64,000 nucleotides of DNA from an uncultured virus (IMG/VR IMGVR_UViG_3300025769_000078) (taxonomy: Duplodnaviria; Heunggongvirae; Uroviricota; Caudoviricetes), in IMG/VR virus record IMGVR_UViG_3300025769_000078; one strand, 5' to 3'. Shown one piece after another: positions 10,999 to 46,029 of the stretch. Each line of letters starts with the position of its first letter. Within the stretch, counting starts at the first letter, position 1. Below the pieces are notes generated by a model. The model was not told the origin of the DNA. It was given only the letters and a program-made list of their open reading frames with translations, and did no database searches. The position numbers and the translations under genes were made by a program.

Positions 10999-11400
10999 AT
11001 GAGTGACCGATGCACATGCCACGACGTTCTCGTTATCAAAGACTTGAACCGATGGTTCAAAGAAAAGTGGGTTGATGTTAGTCGTAAAGACAAAGACGGC
11101 AAGCATCCTCCATGCGGTAGAGGCAAAGCAAAGACATCAAGTAAGGGCTATCCAAAGTGTAGACCCAGTGTAAAGGTCAGTGATAAGACTCCAAAAACTT
11201 CAGGCTCAATGTCTGAAGGACAAAAGCGTGCGGCGACAAAGCGCAAGCGCAGTAAAAAACAAGGCGTAGGTGGCAAGCCTACAATAGTAAAAATGGTTGG
11301 TGTAACAAAATTTGGTCAAATGCAGCAGTGTTACACTTGCGGTAATGTTTTTCCAAATTATAGGATGTTAAACCAACATCAACAACAAATGGGGCATTAA
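10999..11400 (+). CDS. Small basic protein (WFKEKWVD...CGR...YPKCRP module) with a C-terminal C2H2 Zn finger
   Basis: GAGGAGG RBS; module type I recognise from marine phage hypothetical proteins; CYTC..HQQQMGH at the end. Confidence 0.75.
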   Translation: MSDRCTCHDVLVIKDLNRWFKEKWVDVSRKDKDGKHPPCGRGKAKTSSKGYPKCRPSVKVSDKTPKTSGSMSEGQKRAATKRKRSKKQGVGGKPTIVKMVGVTKFGQMQQCYTCGNVFPNYRMLNQHQQQMGH

Positions 11401-11411
11401 AAAAAGGTGAT

Positions 11412-11729
11412 ATGATGAGTGCATTTGATGAAGCATGGGACGTTATTGAAAAAGGAAAAAAGAAGTCGAAGCCGTTTCACGGTTACAATCCAAATCGGCA
11501 TCATAAGAAAGGTGGACTAAACGCTAAAGGGCGTGCCAAGTTCAAGCGTGAAACTGGTGCAAACCTCAAGCCACCTGTAACCACCAAGCCAAGCAAACTC
11601 AAGCCCGGTAGCAAGAGAGCCAAACGTCGTAAGTCATTCTGTGCAAGAATGAGTGGAAGCAAAGGCCCAACAAGCAAGGGTGGTAAACTCACACCAAAAG
11701 GTGCAGCACTGAAAAGATGGAATTGTTGA
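11412..11729 (+). CDS. Tagged small basic protein (GGLNAKGR...RRKSFCARM...RWNC module)
   Basis: MSAFDEAWDVIEKG tag; basic module I recognise from marine T4-like phage hypothetical proteins. Confidence 0.8.
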   Translation: MMSAFDEAWDVIEKGKKKSKPFHGYNPNRHHKKGGLNAKGRAKFKRETGANLKPPVTTKPSKLKPGSKRAKRRKSFCARMSGSKGPTSKGGKLTPKGAALKRWNC

Positions 11730-11730
11730 T

Positions 11731-12765
11731 ATGAGTCAGTTTTTCAATGAGGCATGGCGCTTGCTTAAAGCGATACCATCGGGGCAGTCTTTTCGTGGAG
11801 ACATAATGCAACACTTGCCTACTGAATTGAATTACGATGCTTTGCAATCACATTTAGAGCAGAATCCTAATTCTACGCTTGGCGATTTAATGACACCCTA
11901 TCTTACTGGTGAATTTACTAAACCAACGTCTGAAGTATCTACTAATCCTCGTTCTTATCAAGACGAAAATTTACCTTTCCCCTTGAATGAAAACGAAGCG
12001 GCAAGTTTTGTAGGTAATTTTTCCAATCAAGAAGGAGAATATACAGTTCCTCAATCTTATTATCAAAATAATAGAAGTAATGAAGACATTCAAAATCAAA
12101 AAATTCTTTCAAACATGATGAGAGTTTTACATGGTAGACTCAGACACGGCCAAACAGGTTTTGAAATGTCTCCGCCGAGAACAGGAGGAAAAGGAGCAAA
12201 ACTACCAAGTGGTAAAATGGCAAGACATAACATGAGACTTCAAGATTATATGAACACTCCAATATCTGTTCGACAAGCCGAGATGACACCGTTAGCACAG
12301 AATCAACAAATGATAACTACAGGCGAACCAATGAACTTAGGCGTTGGTGTGATTCGTAAAGAGCGAAAGTCGCCTGAAGCCAAGCGACATAAGTTGGAGT
12401 ATGACAAACAATACGAAGCATCTCCTGAACGAGTCAAGTATCGAGAAGAGTTAAACAGAGAACGACGTAGACGTGGGATGTATGGTGACCACTCGCACCG
12501 AGACATATCACACACCGAAGGTGGTAAATTGACAGTAGAAGATGAGCACGACAACCGAGCACGACATTTCAAGGACAAAGGGACAAAGCGCCCTCTAACA
12601 AAGGGTATCAGAGGCGACCTTGAGTTGCTACGAAATCTGATGAATGGCCCAATGGACGAGCAAGATAAGAAGATTGCACAGGCTCTCCTTACCTCATTAG
12701 ATGACTTCAAACAAGAGCAGGGTGGCGAAGACAGAAAAGAGTTGATGCACCCTTACCCATTCTAA
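11731..12765 (+). CDS. Tagged modular protein with an HNH-like basic module
   Basis: MSQFFNEAWRLLKA; YDKQY..KYREELNRERRRRG..DISH..DNRARH resembles a minimal HNH domain. Confidence 0.6.
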   Translation: MSQFFNEAWRLLKAIPSGQSFRGDIMQHLPTELNYDALQSHLEQNPNSTLGDLMTPYLTGEFTKPTSEVSTNPRSYQDENLPFPLNENEAASFVGNFSNQEGEYTVPQSYYQNNRSNEDIQNQKILSNMMRVLHGRLRHGQTGFEMSPPRTGGKGAKLPSGKMARHNMRLQDYMNTPISVRQAEMTPLAQNQQMITTGEPMNLGVGVIRKERKSPEAKRHKLEYDKQYEASPERVKYREELNRERRRRGMYGDHSHRDISHTEGGKLTVEDEHDNRARHFKDKGTKRPLTKGIRGDLELLRNLMNGPMDEQDKKIAQALLTSLDDFKQEQGGEDRKELMHPYPF

Positions 12766-12853
12766 GTTGTCCGACTTGTCTAATGTCTAATATAGACAAA
12801 TAATATATTCTTGTAAAATGTATAAACAATACAACGGACAACTCGGACAACAC
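12766..12853. repeat. Intergenic quasi-palindromic element, copy B
   Basis: Begins GTTGTCCGACTTGTC and ends GACAACTCGGACAAC (15-bp inverted repeat, 1 mismatch) around an AT-rich core; homologous to 1411-1506. Confidence 0.85.
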
Positions 12854-12867
12854 ACCCAGTAACCTTT

Positions 12868-13485
12868 ATGGTGACCCTTACAGTGGACAAGTCAGTGGAC
12901 ATTATGGACAACACAGACCATCACGAAGCAGAAATCAGGCTTATGGGGCTAATTTTGGCTCAGAGCACACTTGTCGGAGTAGCCATTGGTATCTTTGACG
13001 CTGAAGTTTGGCTAAAGCAAGACAGCGTTTGGATTAACGGATTCACCTATGCTATGGGTGCATTCTTTGTTCAGGGTATTGCTTACTACTTCTTCAAAAT
13101 GTTCTTTGAACAAAACCTGCAAGAACGAGTCCGACATGGTAACATCGAAAAACAACGAAGTCATCAATACCGTATGATGCAACAACAGTTTGACAGTCGT
13201 AGAGCCGACATGGAGATGCGAATGCAAGAAGCACAACTTGAGCGTGAACTACGTTGGATGGAACAAAACCCCGGTAAAATGCCCCCAAGTTGGGGTGTTC
13301 AGGGTGGCTCTCCATCTATGGTAGGCTCATTTGACAACAGAGGTGGTGGCTCTTCGGTATTCGATAGTAGTCGTATTCCAACACACGAAGCAAAGGTGCA
13401 ACAACCATTGACACTCGGTATAGACGAGGAAGTCCCACTCAAGAAAGATGGAACTCCCGACAAGCGTTATCTCAAGAAAGAGTGA
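12868..13485 (+). CDS. Two-TM membrane protein with a coiled coil and a C-terminal KKDGTPDKRY basic motif
   Basis: Two hydrophobic segments and a Q/E/R-rich helical stretch; start may be ATG 12904. Confidence 0.75.
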   Translation: MVTLTVDKSVDIMDNTDHHEAEIRLMGLILAQSTLVGVAIGIFDAEVWLKQDSVWINGFTYAMGAFFVQGIAYYFFKMFFEQNLQERVRHGNIEKQRSHQYRMMQQQFDSRRADMEMRMQEAQLERELRWMEQNPGKMPPSWGVQGGSPSMVGSFDNRGGGSSVFDSSRIPTHEAKVQQPLTLGIDEEVPLKKDGTPDKRYLKKE

Positions 13486-13494
13486 GGCGTATGC

Positions 13495-13752
13495 ATGGGT
13501 CGTATCTTTCGCACTCCTTCTGATGATGCTACTGAAAGCACGCTTCGTGCTATTCACATAGCCAATACAGTAGATACAACCTACGAAAGAGCGTGGGGTT
13601 GGGTAAAAACCGTTCTCGCTTCATTCATTACAGCAATTGTTGTCAGCGGTATCGAGTTTCACAATACAGAATTTAGCGTTTATGAGAACACCGTTGAATG
13701 GACTGTTGATAAGTTGGAACGGCTTGTCAATTGGCTCATGTGGTGGGACTGA
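13495..13752 (+). CDS. Small single-TM membrane protein
   Basis: Hydrophobic VLASFITAIVVSGI; GAGG RBS; stop overlaps the GTPase start. Confidence 0.7.
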   Translation: MGRIFRTPSDDATESTLRAIHIANTVDTTYERAWGWVKTVLASFITAIVVSGIEFHNTEFSVYENTVEWTVDKLERLVNWLMWWD

Positions 13753-14474
13753 TGGTAGATGCAGGTGGCACAGCCTTAGTAGGCGCAGCGATGTGGGGTC
13801 AGAATCTCTACAACTCGTATAAACCACGAAGAGTTGGTGTCTATGGAGCACCAATGGTTGGTAAGACAACGCTTGACCGCTATCTCACCACGCCCGGTGA
13901 AATGGAAGAGATACCCGAAGACGAGCGAACAACGCACTCTCGTATTCTCAAGATTGGTAAATTCAAAATGCCAAAGCCAACAAGAAAGAGAGTATCTTGG
14001 CAAGGCGAAAAGCGAGTTGTTTATTCAGCAGACATAGGAGGACAAGAGCGTTTTTGGAATCTTTGGATTGAAGATATGGTGACTCGTAAATGCGAGGCCA
14101 TTGTTTACATGTTCGACCATAGAGCCTTCAAAGGAGGAGATGAAGGGCTTCAGCAAATAGCAGGGTTTCGTTATCTTGTTGATTGCCTCATTGAACGAAA
14201 CTATCGCTATCGTTCTCTTTGGTCGAGATTCAAGGGAAGAAAGTATCACCCAAAGGTTATCATGCTGGTTGCAAACAAGGCTGACCGCTTCTTTGACGAA
14301 ACCGCTTCAAAACTTTGGCACGATGGTCGCATAGGTGAACACAAGATATTCGACCCGTTTAGAGACGACTTAATCAGGTTACAGAAAGCAGGTATTCCTA
14401 CTCGTAGGTCGTTTATGGCAACAAGGATTGGATGGAATGTTGAGAAGACAATGGTGAGCCTACTTACCTCATGA
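13752..14474 (+). CDS. Ras-superfamily small GTPase, Arf/Sar-like
   Basis: G1 GAPMVGKTT, G3 DIGGQERFWNLW, G4 ANKAD, hydrophobic N-terminal helix; TGATG coupling to the upstream gene. Confidence 0.85.
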   Translation: MVDAGGTALVGAAMWGQNLYNSYKPRRVGVYGAPMVGKTTLDRYLTTPGEMEEIPEDERTTHSRILKIGKFKMPKPTRKRVSWQGEKRVVYSADIGGQERFWNLWIEDMVTRKCEAIVYMFDHRAFKGGDEGLQQIAGFRYLVDCLIERNYRYRSLWSRFKGRKYHPKVIMLVANKADRFFDETASKLWHDGRIGEHKIFDPFRDDLIRLQKAGIPTRRSFMATRIGWNVEKTMVSLLTS

Positions 14475-14529
14475 CCCAAAAAATGACCCCATAGGTAGCC
14501 TTTTCAATAACAATGGTTTCGGTGTAATT

Positions 14530-14727
14530 ATGACAGGCAAGAACTCTTCAACAACACTCGTATCTACTGGTGGCGGTAGTCGTAGTCTTAGAACCACTGT
14601 TCCGATGTGGATTGTTGAGCATTTTGGCTTGACCGCTGGTGACAGCGTAGATTGGAAGTTTGTTGTTCAAGAGGGACACATTGTTGTAGTCATGACTCCT
14701 ACGACTGAGCAGGTCGTGATAGCGTGA
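14530..14727 (+). CDS. AbrB/MazE/SpoVT-type DNA-binding protein
   Basis: SLRTTVPMWIVEHFGLTAGDSVDW matches the swapped-hairpin signature. Confidence 0.8.
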   Translation: MTGKNSSTTLVSTGGGSRSLRTTVPMWIVEHFGLTAGDSVDWKFVVQEGHIVVVMTPTTEQVVIA

Positions 14728-15656
14728 TGTCATGGAATAGACCTCAACAGAATCTAACTGAAGCCGAACTTGCTATACTCGCCGCACAAGGTAACAATCA
14801 ACTTACTCAGGCGGCTCTTCAAGAGATGTTGATGGCTCAACAAGGTATGCAAGAGGTTGCCGCTGCTCAAAACATTGAAGTTCCCAAAGTCAATTTTTAT
14901 CCATCACGTCATGCTGACCCAAAGAAGGCTCGTCGTAAAGACATCAAGCAAGCATACAAACTTCTCCAACCAGCAAAGCGTTCTTGGATAAACCCGTTTC
15001 GATGGGCGTTAGGTCGAAAGTATCGTTACAACAAAGATACAGGAACGTGCGTTGTCGATGGGTGCAACTGTGCAAATTTGATTCAACATGATAATCTCTA
15101 CATGAAAATCAGCGATGAAGAAACAGGTCGCTCTCTATGGGAGATGTATTGGCAAAACCCAGTAACAGGGCAACCTGAAGCATTTATTGCTCAGGACAGA
15201 GTTACCAGTGGTAAGAAAATGCGTGGCACATACTGTCCTGAACATATGCATCTTTACCATCTTCTAAACAAGTGGGAGGCCGAAGAGGACAAACAAAACG
15301 AGATGAATCCAAATCGTCTTCGTGATAAAGTGAAAAGAGGTGTGTCAATTGTGACAGTTCCTATTTCATCTGTCAAGAAAAACGACCCTACACCAGCCAT
15401 GCTACAGAAGTATGAACCATTTTTTGCTGAGTTAGAAAGAGATTCAGGTAAAACAAAAGGCATCAATATCCTTCATTATGCGAATCCAGCAACTGGACAG
15501 AATGATGTTACGATGGTGGTTTTTGATTTGCGTATCTTCCAAATGGAGTTGCAACAAATGAACATGCCGACACAAGCGTTTCAAGAGTTGCTTAATGTTG
15601 AAAATGCTAAAATGCAACAGAACCTTGATGGTGGATTAGGCACTGGGGAGGTCTGA
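14724..15656 (+). CDS. Hypothetical protein with possible Zn ligands (CVVDGCNC...YCPEH)
   Basis: 310-aa ORF coupled to the AbrB-like gene. Confidence 0.75.
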   Translation: MMSWNRPQQNLTEAELAILAAQGNNQLTQAALQEMLMAQQGMQEVAAAQNIEVPKVNFYPSRHADPKKARRKDIKQAYKLLQPAKRSWINPFRWALGRKYRYNKDTGTCVVDGCNCANLIQHDNLYMKISDEETGRSLWEMYWQNPVTGQPEAFIAQDRVTSGKKMRGTYCPEHMHLYHLLNKWEAEEDKQNEMNPNRLRDKVKRGVSIVTVPISSVKKNDPTPAMLQKYEPFFAELERDSGKTKGINILHYANPATGQNDVTMVVFDLRIFQMELQQMNMPTQAFQELLNVENAKMQQNLDGGLGTGEV

Positions 15657-15660
15657 TACG

Positions 15661-16323
15661 ATGTTCAACTTTGGTAATCAACAACCTCAGCAAAGCGGAT
15701 TTAACCTGTCTCAAACAGGTGGAGGCGGTATTAATCAGATAACCACAGGCACTGGTGCTCAAAACGGTTTTTCTCTTGGTGCTCAACAACAACAGCCAAA
15801 TCCATTCATGAATGGAATGATGGGTAGCATGGGAATGAACCAGCAACAACAAATGATGATGCAAAATGGACAGTTTGCGCCGCCAAGTGAAATGGAACTT
15901 TTGTCGGCTTTGCTACAATCACAAAATCCAATTCATCGTTTTATCAGAGATGGTGGGCTTCAAACACTCATAGAGTTGGTTGCCACTACAACCAGTCTTA
16001 GTTTGCTTACAATACTAAAGAGTGCCTCATTCTCATTGGATGAAGATACTGGTGTTATGAAACTTGACCCTGCTACACTACCATCTGATTTACAAACACT
16101 CAGCGTTGAAAACGTCAGCATGATTCTCAACAACATGACGGCTCAAAGCAATCAAAAATTCCAAGAGGCTGAAATGCAACGTCAGCAAATTATGGCTATG
16201 TCGCAACAGTCGATGATGGGCGGTGCTTTGGCGGCGGCTATGGCTGATGAAGGAACGATGCAAAAAGTGGGTAGCGGTATTGGTAGCGTTGCTCGTGGTC
16301 TTATCGGACTACCAAGAAACTAA
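15661..16323 (+). CDS. Q/M/G-rich protein, possibly membrane-associated
   Basis: Low-complexity N-terminus, hydrophobic LIELVATTTSLSLLTIL, amphipathic C-terminus; GGAGGT RBS. Confidence 0.7.
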   Translation: MFNFGNQQPQQSGFNLSQTGGGGINQITTGTGAQNGFSLGAQQQQPNPFMNGMMGSMGMNQQQQMMMQNGQFAPPSEMELLSALLQSQNPIHRFIRDGGLQTLIELVATTTSLSLLTILKSASFSLDEDTGVMKLDPATLPSDLQTLSVENVSMILNNMTAQSNQKFQEAEMQRQQIMAMSQQSMMGGALAAAMADEGTMQKVGSGIGSVARGLIGLPRN

Positions 16324-16332
16324 GGTGATACA

Positions 16333-16572
16333 ATGCAATCAAGTGATTATGGAATAAAAATAAGTCAGGCGAGCAGTTCGATTTTTGCTCCAAGCCGAAA
16401 CATCATTGTTGAAATGATAATGGTTCAGTTTATCTCTGTGATTATCGCTGGTGTGTCTATTTTAATTTTCAAAGGAGATGAAATGAGTAGCGGAGATGTT
16501 AGTGTTTTCGTTGTAGGTATCTTCGGAGCACTTATTTTCTTAACCACGCTTTACTCCCGAATCACTCGGTAA
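16333..16572 (+). CDS. Small two-TM membrane protein (holin-like topology)
   Basis: Two hydrophobic helices in 79 aa; AGGTGA RBS. Confidence 0.7.
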   Translation: MQSSDYGIKISQASSSIFAPSRNIIVEMIMVQFISVIIAGVSILIFKGDEMSSGDVSVFVVGIFGALIFLTTLYSRITR

Positions 16573-16815
16573 CCACTCTCCTATTGGACATCCAACCGAG
16601 GGTGCAAGGGCTTTAATTTTCATAACGCAACTACAGAGTTTGCAAGTCCCCATTCGTTTTTGCATGTAAGGACAACTGTAGCATTTGTCCAGCCGTTTCA
16701 TGTATTCTGACGTTGAAACTCTACGACCTTGTAGTGCGTCTTTTGAAGCCTTGAGTAAGTCTTTCCCACGTTTCTTGAGAGGTTGTTTCGGAACTCTCTC
16801 GTATGGTGGGAGCAT
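16540..16815 (-). CDS. Small basic Cys-rich Zn-binding protein
   Basis: RLDKCYSCP..TCKLCSCVMKIK..CPIGEW pattern, typical of small viral Zn proteins. Confidence 0.7.
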   Translation of the reverse strand: MLPPYERVPKQPLKKRGKDLLKASKDALQGRRVSTSEYMKRLDKCYSCPYMQKRMGTCKLCSCVMKIKALAPSVGCPIGEWLPSDSGVKRG

Positions 16816-16874: not shown

Positions 16875-17558
16875 ATGGCGGAGGGTGGTGGTATCACAAA
16901 AAGGTCTTGCCCTTTGTGCCAACATCCGAGTCGTGCTGACTTAGAAAAAGGGCTACTGGATGGTGAAATATCACCAAAGCAACTTGACAAAGATATGGGC
17001 TGGCGACTCAATACAACAGACCGTCACTTTCGTAACCATATGGGTCAATACCACATGGCATCGAATCCTCAGTGCAAGGTATGCGCTCACGTTGAAAGAG
17101 CCGACTTTGAGCGTCGATTCTTTAGTGACGGCGCTGAATCAGAGGCTATTGCTGAAGAACTTGGCATCTCTGAAGCATCGGTATATCATCACATGAAGCA
17201 TCACTTTCAACCGTTAGTTCAAAGAAGCGCCGCTGCTGAGATAACATTAGTCGTAGGAGAAGAGATAAATGCGCTCAGGTCAAACGTCGAATTGCTCAAC
17301 CATAAATTGTCTGAACTGCTCAATGAGGGCAGTGTTCATGAAGATGGCTTCGTCAAAGATGCAGTGTCACTGCACAAAGAAGTCAGAGAGTCAATAAAGG
17401 ACTTGCTGAAGATGAATGAACAATGGAGTCCTACATCTGAGAACAGTCAAGTCAATAACACAATTAACATTCTCAAAGTCGAACTTGGAAAAGAAAGCCC
17501 TGACTCATGGGCGAGAATCCGTGAGTCACTATTGGAACACGCAGGTGATATGAATTGA
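16875..17558 (+). CDS. Tandem Zn-finger/HTH protein with a coiled coil; candidate terminase small subunit
   Basis: Two CxxCxH...HxxxH repeats with HTH-like IAEELGISEASVYHH, then a coiled coil; lies upstream of TerL. Confidence 0.55.
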   Translation: MAEGGGITKRSCPLCQHPSRADLEKGLLDGEISPKQLDKDMGWRLNTTDRHFRNHMGQYHMASNPQCKVCAHVERADFERRFFSDGAESEAIAEELGISEASVYHHMKHHFQPLVQRSAAAEITLVVGEEINALRSNVELLNHKLSELLNEGSVHEDGFVKDAVSLHKEVRESIKDLLKMNEQWSPTSENSQVNNTINILKVELGKESPDSWARIRESLLEHAGDMN

Positions 17559-24828: not shown

Positions 24829-25727
24829 AAGAAAAGAAAATGGGTGGAAAGAAACACGGTATGGTGCTGATTATCTCAGTGGGTAAGAAGGGTGACAAAG
24901 ACCCTATGCACGCCGCTGACCCTGATTCAAAGAAGAAAGGAATCCGCACAAGAGATGACCATTATGGAAAATACGGCACAGCCGATGAAGCATCAGGAAA
25001 AGAAGATTTTAGAGAAAAATTAGGTGCAGATGTTGATAGATACGTTGGGGTTAAGTCAATAAAAGATATTCATGAAAAACACGGTGACCCATACGCTGGT
25101 ATGACTCCTGAACAGGCTGACGAGTTCAATCGTTTGCTTGCAATGCATAACGAGTTTGAAAAATTAAATCAACCTGAACCTGAACCTGAACCTGAAGCAG
25201 TGCAAGAATCTGTTCCCGCTAAGACTAAGGAAGAAAATCTTTACGATGCTATCTTTAATGAAATGAAAGCAAAGGCTCTGAAAAAAGCCAGCATTGACGA
25301 CTTGTTTCAAGAAGCCAGTTCTCTCAGAGAAGCAGGTGATAAAGCAACAGCAAGACAGTTTTCAGATGTAGCCTCCGCTATGCAACGAGCACCAGCACTA
25401 CGTCAAAGTTTGATTGACCGTTTTGGGACTCAGGCTACCAATGCGTTAGCCATGACTTATCCTGAAATGGCATCAGGTGAAGGTATGGGTGAAATGATGT
25501 TCCAAGAAGGTAAAAACAATCCTGACTATATCGAAGCACGTTCAGACCCTTCCTATCTTGGTGAGGGTAGAAAGCCATTTATGAGTGCTATCAGTGCTTT
25601 AGCACGAGGTAAACAAAGAGTAAACACTCAAGAGTTGGCTGCTCAAGAAGCACTTCAACGACTTATTGCTGAAGACCCATCAAGATTTTTTGCTGACCGA
25701 AGGGTGATGGGTGAGCAAGGTGAGTGA
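24813..25727 (+). CDS. Hypothetical modular protein (304 aa)
   Basis: ORF between TerL and the HMG-CoA lyase; PEPEPEPE linker; internal LKKA. Confidence 0.7.
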   Translation: MDDTMKEKKMGGKKHGMVLIISVGKKGDKDPMHAADPDSKKKGIRTRDDHYGKYGTADEASGKEDFREKLGADVDRYVGVKSIKDIHEKHGDPYAGMTPEQADEFNRLLAMHNEFEKLNQPEPEPEPEAVQESVPAKTKEENLYDAIFNEMKAKALKKASIDDLFQEASSLREAGDKATARQFSDVASAMQRAPALRQSLIDRFGTQATNALAMTYPEMASGEGMGEMMFQEGKNNPDYIEARSDPSYLGEGRKPFMSAISALARGKQRVNTQELAAQEALQRLIAEDPSRFFADRRVMGEQGE

Positions 25728-26565
25728 TGTAAACCTCTACGAAGTTGGCCCTCGTGATGGTCTGCAAAACATAGAGGAGTTTACACCGACAAATGAAAAA
25801 ATTGACTTGATACATCGACTCTACGATGTTGGTTTAAAGCAAATGGAGATTACATCATTTGTTCATCCTAAGTATGTTCCAAACATGGCTGACGCTGAAG
25901 AAGTGTTTCAGGCTACTCGTGACATTGACAACTTTGCTGTTCTTGTCCCAAATCAAAGAGGTATGGACAGAGCAAAGGCTGCTGGGGCTAAAAAAGTAAA
26001 TGTCTTTTTTTCAGCATCTGACAGTTTCAATCAAGCCAACTTAGGAAAAAACATGGATGAAATTGTAGGCGAGTTGGACTCAATGCTCCAAGACACTGAT
26101 ACAAAAAATGTCAGAGCATATGTTTCTTGTGCTTTTGGAGCACCCAATGAAAGTGTCAATGAGCGTAAGGTGCTGGAGGCTATGCAAGCGGCTCAGCACA
26201 TGGGTGATACTGTAGTTCTTTGCGACACGGTTGGTAAGGCACATCCTTCTATTATCTATCGAACTCTTGAGTTGTCGAGGCACATTGATGCTGACATAGC
26301 GTTGCATTTGCATCACCGAAAGGACAAGAAAGACAACATGTTTGCTAACATTCAAACTGCTTTGGAATGGGGTATCACTGAATTTGATACCAGCATTGGC
26401 GGTTTAGGCGGTTGTCCTTTTGTTCATGGTAGTGGTAGCAATCTTTCAACAAACGACATGGTTCGATTTTTGGACAAGATGGGGCATGAGACTGGATTGG
26501 ATATTGCTGAACTGAATGAAATTGCAAAAATCTACAGTAAGCCTCTTCTGAGTAGCAAATGGTAA
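25711..26565 (+). CDS. hmgL: Hydroxymethylglutaryl-CoA lyase (DRE-TIM metallolyase)
   Basis: EVGPRDGLQN, ITSFVHPKYVPNMAD, LCDTVG, ALHLH and GLGGCPF..GSNLST motifs. Confidence 0.9.
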   Translation: MSKVSDVNLYEVGPRDGLQNIEEFTPTNEKIDLIHRLYDVGLKQMEITSFVHPKYVPNMADAEEVFQATRDIDNFAVLVPNQRGMDRAKAAGAKKVNVFFSASDSFNQANLGKNMDEIVGELDSMLQDTDTKNVRAYVSCAFGAPNESVNERKVLEAMQAAQHMGDTVVLCDTVGKAHPSIIYRTLELSRHIDADIALHLHHRKDKKDNMFANIQTALEWGITEFDTSIGGLGGCPFVHGSGSNLSTNDMVRFLDKMGHETGLDIAELNEIAKIYSKPLLSSKW

Positions 26566-31181: not shown

Positions 31182-34100
31182 TTGATTGAAACGCCATCCG
31201 ATTGGTATTACAGAAGTCGTAACGAACTTCTCAAGTCAATCATAGATGGTATCAACATCCCTAATGCTGTTGGAGACTTTCACTTTGCTAAGATGAATTT
31301 AGAAAATCATGGCATTCATATTGATGCGACACCTATGGATGAAATCTGTGATTCGTTGCTCAAGCAAGCCAAGAAAAAGCGACACCGATTCGATAAGAAA
31401 CAAAAGGGTGTGTTCAGTTTTGAACGAGGCGCAGAGATGCGAATTGGTAATCATCCGTGGCAAGGACGTATGAGAGAGCGCCCCTTGTTTGATTTGGCCT
31501 CTTCGTTCCCTCATGCTGAGTTCGCTCAGGGGCAACATTATCCTGAGTCGCATCCTCATCATAAAAACCATCATCCTCTACGTCAGAAGCACGCCATAAC
31601 TGGTAGGTCAAAAATGACAGAAAAGTTACGACGCTTCTACTTAGCATCTGAGCCGAGTGGTGATAGTTTGGCTAAACTATACAAGGAAGCCGAAAAAGGC
31701 AAAGAAAGTTATGAGCAAAAGCAAAACAACTTGTCGGTAATTGGTAAGACAAAGTTCGATAACGCAATAGGTAAGGATGTTAAGCACTACAATCATCTTG
31801 GGCCTTTGAAAGACAACTATGCTTACGACTTTTATCTCCGAGACTTTGAACGATGGAAAAAAGAAAACCCAGCAGCCGTCAATGAAATGATGGACAAATA
31901 CCCCATACCCGCTGAGCACGAGCACGCTCTACAATTGATGCACTTTGAAGATGCTGCTGACAGATGGGAAGGCGACCAGTATCACAGTGAGATGTATGAC
32001 CCAAAGGAGGGTATGACAGAACAAGAGATTCAAGACCATCTTTACAGCGGTGCGAGCGAGGCTGACCTTGAGGCAAAACCGCTTAGAGAAGCACTTGGGT
32101 ATGAGGGCTATCTCTACGGTTTGGAATTTTTATCTCCGCTTGAAAGACAGAAAGTTATCGACCACATCCACGAAAAAGGCACAGATGCTCACGATGTTCA
32201 AAACATTGACTTGGGCGGTGGTGTGAACATTAGCGCTGGGCGTATCAAACGAAACCTCGCTCAGCGATTTACTGGTGAGTTTGACCACTACATGCGACCA
32301 CAGCACATTCATGGTGCGAATGTTAGGAGACACTACGAAACAATTGATGACATTCCAAACGGAGAACAGAGATTCGTTAATCAATCCTTGATACAGGCGA
32401 TGCAAGACATCCCTTTTGATAGCGATAACGAGTCTACAACATCTGTTTATGACAACCTTCTTGCTGAATACAATGAACTTCTTACTGAGCACAAGGATGC
32501 TCTTGATGTTGGTGCATTTGAAAAACCACCTGATGAAGATGAAGATTTCATCAACCAACTACCAGTTAGAGCGATGCGACAAGGTGCAAAAATCCACGAA
32601 GGTGCAAAGGCACACCCAGTTCATCATGGTGAGGGTATTCTTCAAGAGTTGAAGGTGCTTGATGAAAAAGAGCAAAATTTTGTAGATGTAAAAACAATGC
32701 TGGCTCTTATGGGTTACAATGAAGACATGACTGAAATGGACTCACACCCTCTACTACTTGGGTATGAAGGGCCACTTGTTTCTCAGACTAAAATCAAGCA
32801 AATCATAGATAGAGCAAAAGAGTTGGCTAAGGAAAACAAGGAACAGAAGCCAGTTCGTAATCATGATTGGTTTCATCATGGAGGCTCAAACGGTTACGAC
32901 ATCACTGATATTCCAGTAGATGAAAGAGAACATTACCTCACAGACAATATGGGTAACATCATTGGGCTTGGTGCTCACTTTGCTGATGAGTTTCATCATC
33001 AAGGTGGTATGGGTAGAAACGTCTTGCATTATTTGGAGATGATACATGACTCCTTACCAAAAGACGCTCAGGGTTTTTCCGTCATCGGTAAAGTTGAGGG
33101 TAATGAGTTTCTTCCTAATCCAAAAACAATAGGGCTTTGGGGTCGATACGTTCCTTCTCTGTATTCAAAACTCATAAAAGAACACATTGGAGGACATGGT
33201 ATCTCTTCTCTGTGGGATTCTTCAAATCATATTCATCGTAAACCAAGAAACAACAAGAACATGCCCTTTCGACAAGCATCTTCTTTGAACGGAGAATACG
33301 CAAATGCAATTCGTTACATGACCAAAAACGAAAGACAGATTGCCTACAACGGCCCTGCTTGGAATGTCCATCAAGATGGTTCAAACCACTTTACCTCAAA
33401 TCCAATCAACGCCATAGGTGGTATGGGTATGCAACTCACACAATCGCATGTAAACTCAGTAAAATCCCATCGTAACGCAACAATGGGTGGTCGTCTTCAT
33501 CCTCCACACGAGCCTATGAAGAAGAATCGTCGTCTTAGCCGAAGCAATTTACCTGCTAATGCAAGGCTGAGTCATAATGAAAATAGCAAAGAACTGTTCC
33601 GTATTCATCAAGGACATAAGACAAAGAAAGATGATGTAAGAGGAATGCTAACTGAATCACAACGAAATACTGTTCAAGAATTGGATGATGAGTATGATGA
33701 TATTAGCATCGCTATAGAAGGTATGGAACAGGGTAGCGATGAATACGCACAAGCCAACGCACGACTGCATGAAATAGAGGCTGAAATTGATGACATCCAC
33801 GCACTGGCCCAGCCTGATTTTGTTAATCAGTTTGAACATGTATCAAATCATTCAGAAATAAAAGACGAAACCGACCTAAATGCTATTTTGGCTATGGCTC
33901 AGAAAATAAAACCTGAATATGAAAAAGCCGACCCTGATGCTTTCAACCCTGAGTTCCCTGACAAGTTTATAGCGAATACTTCTCGTTTGTTCAAGGATGC
34001 TAACCTTGCTTTGTTGCGATTACCTCATGAGACGCATGGCTTAGAAACACATGGCTATGGTGAAACCATGAAAGAGCAAAAAAGCGCCAGTGAATTGCTT

Positions 34101-36695
34101 TCTCAAGGTGAAGATGTTGTATCGCCTCATCACACTATAGCAAGCGTTTTGGGCGCTGCTGGTAAAGAAATTCTACCTACACACTCTCCTGAAAAAGTTC
34201 GCTCTCTTCTTAATTTACCAAACGATGATGCTCACAATCACATGATTACAAGATTGCTTGAGGGTATGGATGCGCCTGTCAAAGTTCTACGACATGGTGA
34301 TTTGTTAGGCTCAGGTGTTAGTTTTGCTGGTGAGGAAACAAATGACATGTTTACCACTGACGACCATCATGGGACTATAGATGCCATGTTCAATAACCAC
34401 AAAAGAACACGCACGCCAGCAAAAGAAGATGGGACTAAACATAATATCGAAAATAAGCAGTTTGCACAAAAATTCAGAAAAGAATATGGTGGTCATCTTG
34501 AATTTATGGAACAATTATTCAATCCAAGACAACAAAATTCATATCAAACTCATGGCTTATCTCGTGTGCAATTAACTGATTTTGCCGATGAAAGATACAA
34601 AAGAGGAAAGAAGGGGTTTATGGCTACTGGAAGTTTGAAGGGTTTCGCTGGTGGTCTAAACGAAGCCAAGAGTAGAGTTCACGACCTTATTGTATTCGAC
34701 CCAACAAAAGCAAAGACGATGGAGAAGGTAGTAGCACCCTCTACGAAAGTCAAAGAGGCAAACTTTGGTATGTTCCCAATTCACCCCGCTGTGGGTGGTC
34801 GAGGTGTTAGTGTCCAAGATATGTTTGTGTCAGGCACAATGGACAGCGGTTACGCACAATTGCATCCATCTGTTGGTGCTGAGTTCCCCGGTAACAAAAC
34901 CATTATGGTAGGCACAAACACAGAGCCTGAGTATTTGCACAGCATTCCTGAAGAGTTAATGACTGCTGTTCATGGTCAAGATGCAGTTCAACAAGTATTG
35001 TCATCAGGCTATCAAGTTCCTGTCGCCACTACCAACATGAATCGTCCTGACATCACTGGTCTACCTCCAAACATTGACGCTATGAACATCTCGACAAGCG
35101 ACCCATCTGAAACACTGATGGTGCTGATGAATCCTGATGCTTTATTGAAAGAAGACAAGGCTCGTCCTCCTCCTATTCTACCGATGCATCGTATCTTCAG
35201 TCTCAAAGATTTTGAAGCACTACGAGGATTCAGCGGTGATTGGGTTGTCTCAGCATTCTACGATGGTGAGCGTATGATAATCATGCGAAAGGGGAATCGC
35301 TTTACTGCTTACGACGGTGACAACAACGCAGTGCCAATAAGCGAAGAAAACAAAGCAAGTCTCAAAAAACTGACTGAGAAGAACTACATTATCGACGCAG
35401 TGCAAATGAAAGACAACATCCACATCATTGACCTGCTTGACTACGATGACACAAATGTGTCAGATATGACAGTAAGAGAGCGACTCAAAATTCTAAGGGG
35501 TCAGTTCGACAGTCACGATAACGTCTTAGTTCCCGGCCCTTATGATACTCGCATTACAGAAGATGGTGGGCTTCAAGCCACAGTAGAAAGTCTACAGGAA
35601 GAACACAAACAACTGCTGCTCCGTGATGGTAACTCAACTTACATGCGAGGAGAGCGTAGACATCCAAAGTGGTTCTTGCTTCGTAAGAACAAGAATGTCA
35701 GTTTCATTATCTTGGATGCACGAGGTAAAGGGCCATACACCTATCGTTTAGGAGCAGGGCCACTCGACTCAGAAGGCTTTGGTAATCGAGGTGTTGATTA
35801 TGATGGTAAGCAGTATCTCGATGTTGGGACTATCAAAAGTCCCAAGCCATTCAAAGAAGGTGATACGGTTTCCATATCTGTATCGGGTGTTAAAAAGCGG
35901 AATCGAAACGGCAAAACAATCTACGATGTAACCTCTTCAAAGATAGTAGGAGAGGCTGATGCTGAAAGTCCAGCGAGTCTTGAGACGCTATCTCTACTGG
36001 CAAAATCTCACCCAGTTATTCCAGTTCCATACGATATTACTCTCAAAGATGACAGAATATCCATTGTTTTTGATGGCTTAGACGAAGTTGTTTACAAGGC
36101 AGAATCCAGTCATACTGGGAATTGGGCGCACTCACCACACTCTGTTATGGGTGAGTTGAGCCAGTCTGACTACACGCTTCAACTGGCTGAAAGCGTTAGA
36201 CCGCTATGGAATCAGGCTGTGTCGTTGATGCTCAAAGGAGTCGATAAGAAGGATGATACTGTGGTTGAAGAGATTATTCCTGACAAGACATATCACTCCA
36301 TGCATTCTGAAAAAGACAGAAGGCACAGCGAAAAACAATCGGCTGGTATCATTGATGCCGATGATGAAATGAACATCATGAAGCCCAGTATGAAAACAAT
36401 GCTCAAGACAATAACTCGTATCGCTGATTTGACAGAACGGCTTGATAGTCTACAAAAAGAGAAGATGACTGGTGGTGCGAGTAGAGGTGGTTTAGGAATT
36501 GATGTTGGTAGTGCCATTGAATCACCACGAGGGCCAACCAGTCTGACCAGCGAAGAAAGTGTCCCCGACTGGGACATGATTGAGCGCCCGACAGAGGATT
36601 CGGAAAAAGAATACGAGCATGTGCGTAACAAACGCTTAGAGCGAAAAAAACGCAAGCAGCACAGCGATTTAGACGATGAGGATGAAGAAGAGTGA
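31182..36695 (+). CDS. 1837-aa protein with a His-rich N-terminal region and a C-terminal ATP-dependent DNA ligase-like (NTase + OB) fold lacking the catalytic Lys
   Basis: WVVSAFYDGER (versus KxDGxR), YIIDAV, HIIDLL, RERLKIL, LLLRD..STYMRGER..KWFLLR. Confidence 0.8.
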   Translation: MIETPSDWYYRSRNELLKSIIDGINIPNAVGDFHFAKMNLENHGIHIDATPMDEICDSLLKQAKKKRHRFDKKQKGVFSFERGAEMRIGNHPWQGRMRERPLFDLASSFPHAEFAQGQHYPESHPHHKNHHPLRQKHAITGRSKMTEKLRRFYLASEPSGDSLAKLYKEAEKGKESYEQKQNNLSVIGKTKFDNAIGKDVKHYNHLGPLKDNYAYDFYLRDFERWKKENPAAVNEMMDKYPIPAEHEHALQLMHFEDAADRWEGDQYHSEMYDPKEGMTEQEIQDHLYSGASEADLEAKPLREALGYEGYLYGLEFLSPLERQKVIDHIHEKGTDAHDVQNIDLGGGVNISAGRIKRNLAQRFTGEFDHYMRPQHIHGANVRRHYETIDDIPNGEQRFVNQSLIQAMQDIPFDSDNESTTSVYDNLLAEYNELLTEHKDALDVGAFEKPPDEDEDFINQLPVRAMRQGAKIHEGAKAHPVHHGEGILQELKVLDEKEQNFVDVKTMLALMGYNEDMTEMDSHPLLLGYEGPLVSQTKIKQIIDRAKELAKENKEQKPVRNHDWFHHGGSNGYDITDIPVDEREHYLTDNMGNIIGLGAHFADEFHHQGGMGRNVLHYLEMIHDSLPKDAQGFSVIGKVEGNEFLPNPKTIGLWGRYVPSLYSKLIKEHIGGHGISSLWDSSNHIHRKPRNNKNMPFRQASSLNGEYANAIRYMTKNERQIAYNGPAWNVHQDGSNHFTSNPINAIGGMGMQLTQSHVNSVKSHRNATMGGRLHPPHEPMKKNRRLSRSNLPANARLSHNENSKELFRIHQGHKTKKDDVRGMLTESQRNTVQELDDEYDDISIAIEGMEQGSDEYAQANARLHEIEAEIDDIHALAQPDFVNQFEHVSNHSEIKDETDLNAILAMAQKIKPEYEKADPDAFNPEFPDKFIANTSRLFKDANLALLRLPHETHGLETHGYGETMKEQKSASELLSQGEDVVSPHHTIASVLGAAGKEILPTHSPEKVRSLLNLPNDDAHNHMITRLLEGMDAPVKVLRHGDLLGSGVSFAGEETNDMFTTDDHHGTIDAMFNNHKRTRTPAKEDGTKHNIENKQFAQKFRKEYGGHLEFMEQLFNPRQQNSYQTHGLSRVQLTDFADERYKRGKKGFMATGSLKGFAGGLNEAKSRVHDLIVFDPTKAKTMEKVVAPSTKVKEANFGMFPIHPAVGGRGVSVQDMFVSGTMDSGYAQLHPSVGAEFPGNKTIMVGTNTEPEYLHSIPEELMTAVHGQDAVQQVLSSGYQVPVATTNMNRPDITGLPPNIDAMNISTSDPSETLMVLMNPDALLKEDKARPPPILPMHRIFSLKDFEALRGFSGDWVVSAFYDGERMIIMRKGNRFTAYDGDNNAVPISEENKASLKKLTEKNYIIDAVQMKDNIHIIDLLDYDDTNVSDMTVRERLKILRGQFDSHDNVLVPGPYDTRITEDGGLQATVESLQEEHKQLLLRDGNSTYMRGERRHPKWFLLRKNKNVSFIILDARGKGPYTYRLGAGPLDSEGFGNRGVDYDGKQYLDVGTIKSPKPFKEGDTVSISVSGVKKRNRNGKTIYDVTSSKIVGEADAESPASLETLSLLAKSHPVIPVPYDITLKDDRISIVFDGLDEVVYKAESSHTGNWAHSPHSVMGELSQSDYTLQLAESVRPLWNQAVSLMLKGVDKKDDTVVEEIIPDKTYHSMHSEKDRRHSEKQSAGIIDADDEMNIMKPSMKTMLKTITRIADLTERLDSLQKEKMTGGASRGGLGIDVGSAIESPRGPTSLTSEESVPDWDMIERPTEDSEKEYEHVRNKRLERKKRKQHSDLDDEDEEE

Positions 36696-45473: not shown

Positions 45474-45483
45474 GGTGACTATC

Positions 45484-46029
45484 ATGCCAACACCATCAGA
45501 AAGAGCACACAAATACGGAAAACTATCTCACGCTGAATATGCCAGTTGGTATGGTCAGCAGATAGGAGTAGTTTCAGGTGACTTAGTTGCTGCTGGTAAA
45601 AAGCGCACACTGGGGCTTATCGAAGATGCTGTTACCGCACTTTTACCTACAGTGGTCGAGGAAGAGGTCGCTGATGAGGTAACAGAAACAGTATATGAAG
45701 CAACATCAGATTTGGCTGCTCCTGAAGACATTGGTGACAGCGAAGATTTTCCAACAGAACTGACGTATGACGCTATGACCGTCAAAGAACTTCAGGCACT
45801 ATGCAAAGACCGTGGGCTACCTGTCTACGGCACAAAGGCTGAAATCGCTCTACGCTTGAAGCGTGACGATGAAGGCATATCCGAGTCCACGACTGAGACT
45901 GAAGCCCCCGAAGAATCGGCTGCTGATGTAGAGTCGGACACCCCCGCTGAAGAAGCGGCTGTGACCAATGGTGAGACAAATGACCAAAACAATAGTAGCG
46001 AACAAGAACCTCTTGATGAGACGGCATGA
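45484..46029 (+). CDS. Acidic protein with a SAP DNA-binding motif
   Basis: YDAMTVKELQALCKDRGLPVYGTKAEIALRL; GAGGTGA RBS before ATG 45484. Confidence 0.8.
   Translation: MPTPSERAHKYGKLSHAEYASWYGQQIGVVSGDLVAAGKKRTLGLIEDAVTALLPTVVEEEVADEVTETVYEATSDLAAPEDIGDSEDFPTELTYDAMTVKELQALCKDRGLPVYGTKAEIALRLKRDDEGISESTTETEAPEESAADVESDTPAEEAAVTNGETNDQNNSSEQEPLDETA

Follow-up and report, generated by a model that had tools for sequence, protein, structure and literature searches.

A conserved cassette of magrovirus-type archaeal viruses that joins a predicted Arf-like small GTPase to membrane-protein and orphan partners

The DNA analysed here is a stretch of 64,000 nucleotides (the window) from an uncultured tailed virus (Caudoviricetes; IMG/VR record IMGVR_UViG_3300025769_000078), in which a sequence-only reading, made without database searches, had noticed a gene for an Arf-like small GTPase within a cluster of membrane-protein genes at 12868-16572 and had proposed an egress or membrane-remodelling system. 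Comparison of related loci indicates that this GTPase (G) belongs to a robust, conserved magrovirus cassette, whose core consists of G, two partner proteins (I and J) and two predicted membrane proteins (E and F). G itself represents, with reasonable support from profile and model comparisons, a divergent GTPase family that we call Arf-like and not Arf. What our comparisons present as new is an apparently virus-restricted family of Arf-like GTPases with fixed membrane and orphan partners.

The core genes, and the two smaller genes that accompany them in the window (H and K, described below), all lie on the plus strand, and every open reading frame (ORF) named by the sequence-only reading, from E through K, was present where it had been placed. 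E (12868-13485) encodes a membrane protein of 205 residues, F (13495-13752) a membrane protein of 85 residues, G (13752-14474) the GTPase of 240 residues, I (14724-15656) an orphan protein of 310 residues with a Cys/His cluster, and J (15661-16323) a Gln/Met/Gly-rich protein of 220 residues. The frame of G is open from 13731, and we read it from the ATG at 13752 because 240 residues is the size of nearly all of its homologs. Successive gaps from E to K measure 9, -1, 55, -4, 4 and 9 nt, a layout that would fit a single transcription unit, and a 102-nt, AT-rich gap upstream of E (12766..12867, plus strand), with TATA-like runs visible by eye, may hold an archaeal promoter. The TGA of F and the ATG of G share one base (TGATG), so the stop/start overlap behind the earlier proposal of translational coupling is present, and coupling as such is what this overlap would suggest. 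By a Kyte-Doolittle scan with a 19-residue window, E has one strong transmembrane (TM) segment at residues 25-43 and a weaker hydrophobic segment at residues 62-80 (score 1.26), making the second pass that had been attributed to it plausible and not firm. The single TM segment of F (residues 35-55) was confirmed, as were the two of K (residues 28-46 and 56-74), and no TM-grade segment was found in G, H or I.

The window also encodes a large terminase, a portal, a prohead protease and an HK97-type capsid protein, as identified with Pfam and PHROGs. Among 50,697 phage records, the capsid protein matched archaeal tailed viruses only (11 of 11 matching records), the closest being HVTV-1, HCTV-1 and HCTV-5 at 33-35% identity. 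A relative in IMG/VR, a record of 107,203 bp that is rated complete, has a GTPase 99% identical to that of the window and encodes PolB, an RFC-like AAA protein, ERCC4, a PD-(D/E)XK nuclease, a group II chaperonin (Cpn60_TCP1), an SNF2 helicase and a C5 methylase. The passages of Philosof et al. (PMC5434244) on gene content describe magroviruses as combining a halovirus-like capsid module with a near-complete archaeal-type replication set, thermosome and SNF2 being features of group A. Both parts of this description were found, through the capsid protein of the window and the genes of the 107-kb relative. Because the capsid matches archaeal viruses only and the 107-kb relative has PolB, a thermosome and SNF2, we assigned the window, by gene content, to an archaeal tailed virus of magrovirus type, as the sequence-only reading had proposed. 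A 106,262-bp contig in a Poseidoniales single-cell assembly (L082, or G003:C2), which is of magrovirus size, carries the GTPase cassette (39% GTPase identity), the capsid gene (63%) and the terminase gene (46%) in the same order as the window. This contig is direct if circumstantial evidence that supports, and does not prove, a host among the Poseidoniales, which are archaea abundant in the ocean.

To follow the cassette across related viruses, we collected 73 IMG/VR loci whose GTPases are 55-99% identical to that of the window (lineage 1) and searched for the neighbouring genes by tblastn. E was found in 68 of the loci, F in 71, G and I in all 73, and J in 67; the five loci lacking E have too little upstream sequence, and both that lack F begin inside G. 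Gene order was collinear in 73/73. The accompanying genes varied in frequency (H in 36 loci, K in 59, L in 67 and M in 73), and genes further upstream were far less constant, being present in 3-33 of the 73 loci. The distance from the F stop to the G start is 0-10 nt in most loci, larger or negative values arising where the ORF caller chose alternative start codons upstream.

A second, deeply diverged lineage, represented by P0145, yielded 140 loci, of which we kept 80; its GTPases are 31-34% identical to that of the window. The order of genes in this lineage is a two-TM protein (165 residues), a one-TM protein (73 residues), the GTPase (223 residues), a protein sharing the C-x-x-H motif of I (226 residues) and a Gln/Met-rich protein (237 residues), and these genes were found in 77, 80, 80, 80 and 75 of the 80 loci, respectively, with the misses appearing to reflect short flanks. 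When the families of the two lineages were compared by hhalign, G matched at 99.9%, I at 95.5% (E 1.6e-8) and J at 71% (E 3.6e-5). The TM pair was kept in architecture, with two TM segments predicted in 58/59 distinct E2 sequences and one in 51/57 F2 sequences. We had considered a homologous five-gene cassette and dropped it because E and F are dissimilar between the lineages; in its place stands a homologous G-I-J core with an architecturally conserved TM pair. Since E and F lack detectable homology across lineages, the membrane pair is conserved as architecture and position only. In lineage 2 the cassette directly follows the genes for the capsid, an SAP-domain protein and a 99-residue protein and is itself followed by further large late genes, while in the window it lies ~9 kb upstream of the terminase gene, in a same-strand train running to terminase, portal, protease and capsid; since the position differs between the genomes, the block has moved as a unit. 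No viral-contig loci were found for two more distant representatives, P0151 and P0166. Taken together, these comparisons bear out the linkage of TM genes to the GTPase across magroviruses that the sequence-only reading had put forward for checking. They narrow the cluster it had outlined to a core of E, F, G, I and J, with H and K, as well as L and M, as lineage-specific additions.

G contains the motifs of a small GTPase at the coordinates first noted, namely G1 (GAPMVGKTT) at 13845, G3 (DIGGQERFWNLW) at 14031 and G4 (NKAD) at 14274. Along the protein, these correspond to residues 32-40, 94-98 and 175-178, preceded by an N-terminal helix (residues 4-23) and with an insert in switch I (residues 47-76). 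In an alignment of 131 family sequences, the P-loop GxxxxGK[ST] is kept, with G32, G37 and K38 in 130/131 and T39 in 129/131, as are D94, G97, N175 and K176 (130/131 each) and D178 (129/131). The same alignment revealed a near-invariant, family-specific motif, R59-T60-x-H62, in the switch-I insert, together with near-invariant W102, W105, R112, D122 and R124. At residue 98, which follows the two glycines of G3, Q predominates (103 sequences), the others having E (19), D (4), H (3), A (1) or a gap (1); the window protein has DIGGQ.

Searches with single sequences placed G poorly. Pfam returned sub-threshold matches to Roc (E 0.003) and MMR_HSR1 (E 0.017), NCBIfam returned TIGR00231 alone, below its cut-off, and phmmer against PDB sequences gave nothing significant; G reaches no Pfam or NCBIfam cut-off. 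Homologs were numerous among marine metagenome proteins, with 467 at E<=0.001 on contigs of up to 125 kb, some of them labelled 'GTPase SAR1 family protein' by Joint Genome Institute (JGI) automatic annotation. Among 1.84 billion 50%-identity clusters, only 76 representatives matched, and none of these falls plainly into a cellular GTPase family. By these searches, G appears to form a large but closed and very divergent family, and, with 467 homologs and conserved synteny, the feature lies far beyond chance.

An AlphaFold2 (AF2) model of G built from a 32-sequence alignment had a predicted local distance difference test score (pLDDT) of 88.4 and a predicted template modelling score (pTM) of 0.85. 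The order of its elements, beta1-alpha1-beta2/3-alpha2-beta4-alpha3-beta5-alpha4-beta6-alpha5, is that of a canonical small GTPase with an added N-terminal helix, and the extra parts are the switch-I insert at residues 47-76 and helices at residues 129-164 and 183-212. G thus has the features by which the Ras superfamily (TRAFAC) is recognised, namely G1, G3, the guanine-specifying G4 and the six-stranded small-GTPase fold, and very probably is a real GTP-binding, Arf-like switch.

We next compared G with solved GTPases. When a family profile of G was searched against all PDB sequences, the top match was the Asgard protein GerdArfR1 (8oun_A, E 1.2e-6), aligned over the N-terminal helix and G1 and over G3 and switch II, followed by Arl8A, Arl8B and Arl10 (E 1.6e-4 to 4.4e-3; Arl8 at 1.6e-4); the matches outside the Arf family were Rab33B (2e-3) and then EF-Tu, G-alpha-s and KRas (0.05). 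The entries 8OUN and 8OUM are identified as GerdArfR1 in the part of the preprint that concerns these structures (bioRxiv 10.1101/2024.02.28.582541). By VIA-align, run over Foldseek's top 1000 chains, ranks 1-24 were all Arf-family proteins (Z 15.7-17.7, root-mean-square deviation [rmsd] 2.3-6.1, most 2.4-2.8 over ~160 residues). Z scores were 17.7 for Arf6 (rmsd 2.4, 160 aligned residues) and Arf1, 17.5 for Arl8b, 17.4 for Arl1, 16.9 for GerdArfR1 and 16.5 for HodArfR1, compared with 15.0-15.3 for Rab5 and Rab6 (rmsd 3.2-3.5) and 14.9 for KRas and SRbeta. A third line came from one Asgard metagenome-assembled genome (MAG), from which two GTPases were compared: the best cellular match to the G profile was a GTPase with Arf as its top Pfam match and SRPRB also matching (E 2.9e-8; hhalign 97.4%), and the second was a Ras-type GTPase (E 7e-4; hhalign 93.6%).

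Three observations weigh against calling G an Arf. The window protein scores 11.2 bits against Pfam Arf (PF00025), short of the 22.3-bit cut-off, and among 32 family members the Pfam matches at E<=1 were Roc for 15, Arf for 12 (best 0.0048) and MMR_HSR1 for 12. Foldseek alone fails to separate Arf from Ras, Rab and Rho (all E ~1e-8). Finally, the catalytic Gln is swapped for E, D, H or A in 27/131 sequences, so the classical residue is dispensable in part of the family, where its loss points to catalysis in trans, or else to a GTPase cycle that is slow or altered. G-alpha proteins also share the DxGGQ motif. The initial statement that DxGGQ is the Arf signature, which fits the DIGGQ of the window protein, was consequently too strong for a family in which 27 of 131 members lack the Gln and which does not reach the Pfam Arf model. 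Taken together, three independent lines (PDB profile, VIA fold comparison and the Asgard MAG) place G, with reasonable support, closest to Arf, and membership by curated model is not obtained; a virus-encoded small GTPase whose closest solved relatives by profile and fold are Arf-family proteins is the part of the proposal that stands. Similarly, of the 'eukaryote-like module' described at the outset, G is eukaryote-like and the rest of the cassette is not.

The hydrophobic N-terminal helix attributed to G was recovered as the most hydrophobic part of the protein and as helix 4-23 in the AF2 model. In both lineages, the most hydrophobic 19-residue stretch of G is the segment before the P-loop, with a median Kyte-Doolittle value of 1.06-1.34, which is below TM grade; across 32 sequences, the helix has a mean hydrophobicity of 0.43-0.82 and a hydrophobic moment of 0.17-0.46. 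These properties are compatible with, and do not prove, a membrane-inserting helix of the Arf/Sar1 type.

We also examined how far G extends beyond these viruses. At E<=0.01, the G profile matched a single one of 201 Poseidoniales genomes, in which the matching sequence is the viral contig, and none of the 200 others. Neither the whole HVTV-1 genome (profile, E<=1) nor the 50,697 phage records (tblastn) contained a match to G. A species-genome collection gave five hits, each encoding a full-length relative of G; one is in the Poseidoniales single-cell assembly, and the others are in MAGs that bear the labels Parvibaculum (two contigs), Maricaulis and Promethearchaeati. The contigs with G relatives in the last three bins (L078, L079, L080 and L081) are probably mis-binned viral contigs. 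Because G is restricted to viral contigs and kept in two lineages, it is a long-standing virus-restricted gene and not a recent host capture. A full-text literature search returned no paper linking magroviruses with a GTPase; the main texts of PMC10160649, PMC11706807 and PMC8651126 contain neither 'GTPase' nor 'GTP-binding', and PMC5434244 contains neither 'GTPase' nor 'GTP', although supplementary tables could list the gene. Likewise, passages from papers retrieved for Arf-type small GTPases and archaeal viruses, PMC11529989 among them, do not describe the cassette, again with the proviso that supplementary tables could list the gene.

The partners of G matched few known families. E, F, G, H, I, J and K have no PHROG family, and PADLOC gave no match for nine cassette proteins. 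E has a long, charged C-terminal part, rich in Gln, Arg, Glu and Met, with a Gly/Ser-rich tail; it appears holin-like in architecture only, and its match to Pfam DUF350 (E 0.007) is weak and below the cut-off. F has a conserved N-terminal segment of ~34 residues and matched nothing in the PDB (profile, E<=1), Pfam or PHROG. In one metagenome protein of 303 residues (P0038), encoded on a lone 1,627-bp contig, the C-terminal part of F with its TM segment is joined in frame to G, which may be a hint of physical coupling of the Rosetta-stone kind or an assembly error; a search for fused forms of G of 421-2000 residues found none, which is weak evidence.

In I, residues C109, C171, H174, H176 and H179 are invariant in 17/17 aligned sequences, with the spacing C171-P-x-H174-x-H176-x-x-H179, and there are conserved Arg/Lys residues as well; the Cys/His cluster is a possible zinc site. 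The AF2 model of I has a pLDDT of 65, and we rejected a fold match for it because the best result of a wide VIA search (Z 5.9, to connexin and LRRC8 helices) is noise. No PDB profile match to I was found at E<=1, and neither I nor J had a usable Protein Atlas match. J has a low-complexity N-terminus rich in Gln, Met and Gly, a helical core and a Gly/Ala-rich C-terminal tail; it lacks a Pfam or Atlas match and gave one PDB profile match, at E 0.95.

The remaining genes in and beside the cassette are less constant. H (14530-14727, plus strand; 65 residues) had been called AbrB-like; the resemblance rests on a match to Pfam MazE_antitoxin (E 7e-5, 23.1 bits) that falls short of the 24.7-bit cut-off, leaving an accessory protein that may have an AbrB/MazE-like fold. 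H was seen in closer relatives only and is missing from the single-cell contig and lineage 2. K (16333-16572, plus strand; 79 residues) has a counterpart on the single-cell contig, and none was seen beside the lineage-2 cassette. L (16540-16815, minus strand) encodes a Cys-rich protein of 91 residues that matches phrog_13558 (E 8.4e-11) and, below the cut-off, Pfam DUF6171 (E 4e-4); it is on the minus strand in 67/73 loci and shares 33 nt with the 3' end of K, and the single-cell contig has a 94-residue Cys-rich ORF at the same place on the plus strand. M (16875-17558, plus strand; 227 residues) has two CxxC-type pairs and a helix-turn-helix (HTH) matching Pfam HTH_20 (E 3.3e-7; its 30.6 bits exceed the cut-off of 27), and is probably a DNA-binding regulator flanking the cassette; it does not adjoin the cassette in lineage 2. 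Upstream of E, at 10999-12765 on the plus strand, lie three phage-associated genes of no known function, matching DUF5872 (E 4.9e-11), DUF6321 (E 7.9e-18) and phrog_6437 (E 1.8e-13), which were found in 15, 17 and 33 of the 73 loci, respectively.

Several other plus-strand genes of the window deserve mention. The terminase-portal interval holds a 284-residue HMGL-like enzyme (25711-26565; pyruvate carboxyltransferase/aldolase-type, Pfam E 1.2e-31), a possible auxiliary metabolic gene within the morphogenetic module. A 1,837-residue ORF (31182-36695) lies between portal and prohead protease; residues 1404-1497 have a weak match to an ATP-dependent DNA ligase domain (E 1.5e-4, below the cut-off), and HVTV-1 has at the matching position a 1,313-residue protein annotated 'zeta toxin'. 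A 196-residue SAP-domain protein is encoded at 45439-46029 (Pfam E 1.4e-9), and the SAP-domain gene of lineage 2 is two genes upstream of the GTPase cassette. The structural gene train closes with a single ORF of at least 4,930 residues (49208-64000), open at the window end, which has no Pfam match at E<=0.001.

We then set the cassette beside known systems. The best profile and fold relatives of G lie in the Arf family, including ArfR proteins (GerdArfR1, 8OUN/8OUM; HodArfR1, 8OUK), Arl8, Arf1/Arf6, Arl1, Arl3 and Arl6. Like Arf proteins, G has a G1 ending in GKTT and a G3/switch II of the form D-I-G-G-Q-x-R-F-x-x-x-W, as in the Arl8 alignment, and its N-terminal helix precedes beta1 and aligns with the amphipathic helix of ArfR. 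G differs from them in that it shares only 15-20% identity, has 240 residues versus ~180, carries a switch-I insert of ~25 residues with R-T-x-H and extra helices at 129-164 and 183-212, does not universally keep Gln98, is not expected to be myristoylated, and comes from a virus whose host is an archaeon outside the Asgard group. In Arf proteins, the N-terminal amphipathic helix packs against the core when GDP is bound and enters the membrane when GTP is bound; an interswitch toggle, a two-residue register shift of beta2-beta3, is a further Arf feature (bioRxiv 10.1101/2024.02.28.582541).

The closest archaeal system by description is the ArvA/ArvB/ArvC (OapABC) operon of Haloferax volcanii, presented in the relevant passages of PMC10927574 as a small-GTPase vesiculation operon in which ArvC, a Zn-finger protein, is proposed as the GTPase-activating protein (GAP) of ArvA; there, the structure of ArvA is related both to EngA (2DYK) and to Arf1. 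Both systems combine small partner proteins with an archaeal small GTPase whose N-terminal helix is hydrophobic or amphipathic, I would parallel ArvC, and membrane deformation is the feature of Arv; the cassette has TM proteins, whereas the Arv operon has none, and G was set against ArvA by description. No Pfam match to ArvB (OapB/DUF2073, PF09846) or ArvC (DUF2072) was found in E, F, H, I, J, K, L or M at E<=0.1. Nor did OapB (PF09846) turn up in any of 61 Poseidoniales genomes, in a search whose Haloferax and Methanosarcina controls were positive.

Within the Arf clade, Sar1 works with the single-pass membrane guanine-nucleotide exchange factor (GEF) Sec12 and SRbeta has its own N-terminal TM anchor, two cases of GTPases that need a membrane protein or a hydrophobic N-terminus. 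As in Sar1, a His follows the two glycines in 3/131 viral sequences, and SRbeta is in the G fold list (Z 14.9). The likeness to Sar1/Sec12 is one of description, and F, with 85 residues and a soluble part of ~34 residues, is far too small for the propeller of Sec12.

E, F and K recall holin cassettes in being small, with one or two TM segments and hydrophilic tails, and in lying beside or inside the morphogenetic module; unlike holin-endolysin cassettes, there is no adjacent lytic enzyme and no holin family match (Pfam, PHROGs), and E is large for a holin at 205 residues. The earlier remark that no endolysin is recognisable agreed with the absence of lytic-enzyme domains from 44 window ORFs searched with Pfam, a set that does not include all small ORFs. 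We know of no holin system that contains a GTPase. The sections of PMC11706807 on lysis genes report a putative holin-endolysin pair for Adrikavirales viruses of Poseidoniales. Ras-superfamily GTPases on viruses or mobile elements have precedents in a mimivirus Rab (PDB 5XC5, which is in the G fold list) and in Arf-type GTPases that parts of PMC11529989 place in a region of Atabeyarchaeia resembling a mobile genetic element. Those GTPases are close copies of host or eukaryote families, whereas magrovirus G is a separate, virus-restricted family with fixed partners.

These features lead us to propose that G would be a GTP-controlled switch on the host cytoplasmic membrane, cycling on and off with its nucleotide. 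It would be attached through its own N-terminal helix, through the single-pass F acting as receptor or anchor, or through both, and in the GTP state would organise E, I and J at the membrane, with I and its Cys/His cluster as a candidate regulator (GAP-like) or effector and E and J as the parts acting on the membrane. The purpose would be a late membrane-directed step of infection, for which timed membrane breaching or remodelling for virion release is the lead candidate; by gene content, the cassette sits among what appear to be late or morphogenetic genes in both lineages. We lean towards G acting at the membrane with E and F. The best explanation as a whole, a conserved cassette with G as membrane switch serving a late membrane-directed step, is put forward tentatively, at slightly less than even confidence. 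Egress or lysis specifically is possible but rather doubtful, and we would speak with similar reserve of a self-contained viral membrane machine in which G, anchored by F and its helix and regulated by I, assembles E and J to release virions. Among possible purposes, we would rank timed virion release first, followed by a membrane-bound assembly platform, host takeover or exclusion, and a non-membrane regulatory role.

A number of points weigh against this membrane reading. Between the lineages, hhalign detects no homology for E (0.3%) or F (2.3%), and, G apart, none of the cassette proteins looks like a known protein of membrane remodelling or lysis, or like a known GAP, GEF or coat protein, in Pfam, PHROG, NCBIfam, the PDB or PADLOC. 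The N-terminal helix of G is only moderately amphipathic, and AF2 is less confident there (block means of 59 and 74). Virus genomes commonly contain small TM genes, which makes adjacency alone weak evidence of partnership, and the P0038 fusion is a single sequence on a 1.6-kb contig that could be an assembly error. The function we propose for the cassette is read from its genes alone.

The alternative that survives best is that the cassette tethers or times virion morphogenesis (capsid, packaging, tail) at the membrane with no direct part in breaching it. The location of the lineage-2 cassette inside the structural module, the same-strand train of the window and the fact that G and I are the best-conserved members, as for core life-cycle genes, all agree with such a platform. 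However, HVTV-1 builds a homologous capsid without such a GTPase, and none of the cassette proteins looks like a scaffold, a chaperone or a packaging factor in Pfam, PHROG or PDB profile searches. Among bacteriophage lysis cassettes, that of lambda lies just before the terminase genes and that of P2 separates head genes from tail genes; since they occur at both kinds of place, position cannot separate egress from assembly. We regard an assembly platform as unlikely, if worth keeping in view.

An improbable alternative is that the membrane switch serves to manipulate host division, transport, envelope or vesicles, or to block superinfection, and has no part in release. Host-takeover genes of this sort are usually variable and lineage-specific, whereas G, I and J persist in both lineages, the GTPases of which are 31-34% identical, and the cassette lies among late genes and lacks PADLOC matches. 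What speaks for this alternative is that a membrane-anchored Arf-like switch could recruit host factors, that regulators (the AbrB-like H and the HTH protein M) flank the cassette, and that the absence of OapB from 61/61 Poseidoniales genomes may mean that the host lacks ArvA-type vesiculation, which the virus could substitute or mimic.

We give little credence to a third possibility, in which the cassette is not a membrane system at all and G is a soluble regulator (of translation, packaging or nucleic acids) working with I and J beside unrelated TM genes. It would account for the lack of homology of E and F between lineages, for the lack of a TM-grade segment in G, for weak Pfam matches of G that include MMR_HSR1 and GTP_EFTU, and for a Cys/His cluster in I that could bind nucleic acid. 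It fits poorly with the fixed arrangement of a two-TM gene and then a one-TM gene directly upstream of G in both lineages and the single-cell contig, with F stops and G starts that overlap or lie <=10 nt apart in most loci, with an N-terminal helix that aligns with the Arf amphipathic helix, and with the one F-G fusion. Lastly, a sporadic, recently host-derived GTPase unlinked to the TM genes and without conserved partners, which would have undone the original proposal and for which we found no support (the JGI labels reflect fold class only), is already refuted by synteny and distribution: G is in 73/73 and 80/80 loci, lineage 1 is collinear throughout, the one Poseidoniales genome with a match owes it to a viral contig that keeps the cassette order, the other full-length genome-collection matches are in bins that suggest viral contigs, and none of the 76 representatives is obviously cellular.

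To our knowledge, the exit route of tailed archaeal viruses is not known. Arf-type GTPases start membrane budding in eukaryotes, and their existence in Asgard archaea was shown only recently. For viruses of Poseidoniales, we found a holin-type proposal for Adrikavirales only, a different order, in the portions of PMC11706807 that discuss release. The cassette offers a concrete, clonable five-protein set for probing the exit of tailed archaeal viruses. If its function is not membrane-related, it still brings three orphan families (F, I and J) as fixed GTPase partners in a globally abundant virus group. If the membrane-machine reading is true, it would be the first defined egress system of tailed archaeal viruses, and with G an Arf-like membrane switch would for the first time be seen at work in a prokaryotic virus, away from Asgard archaea and eukaryotes. 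G also matters for the question of how Arf-like switches have spread in evolution outside the Asgard-eukaryote lineage.

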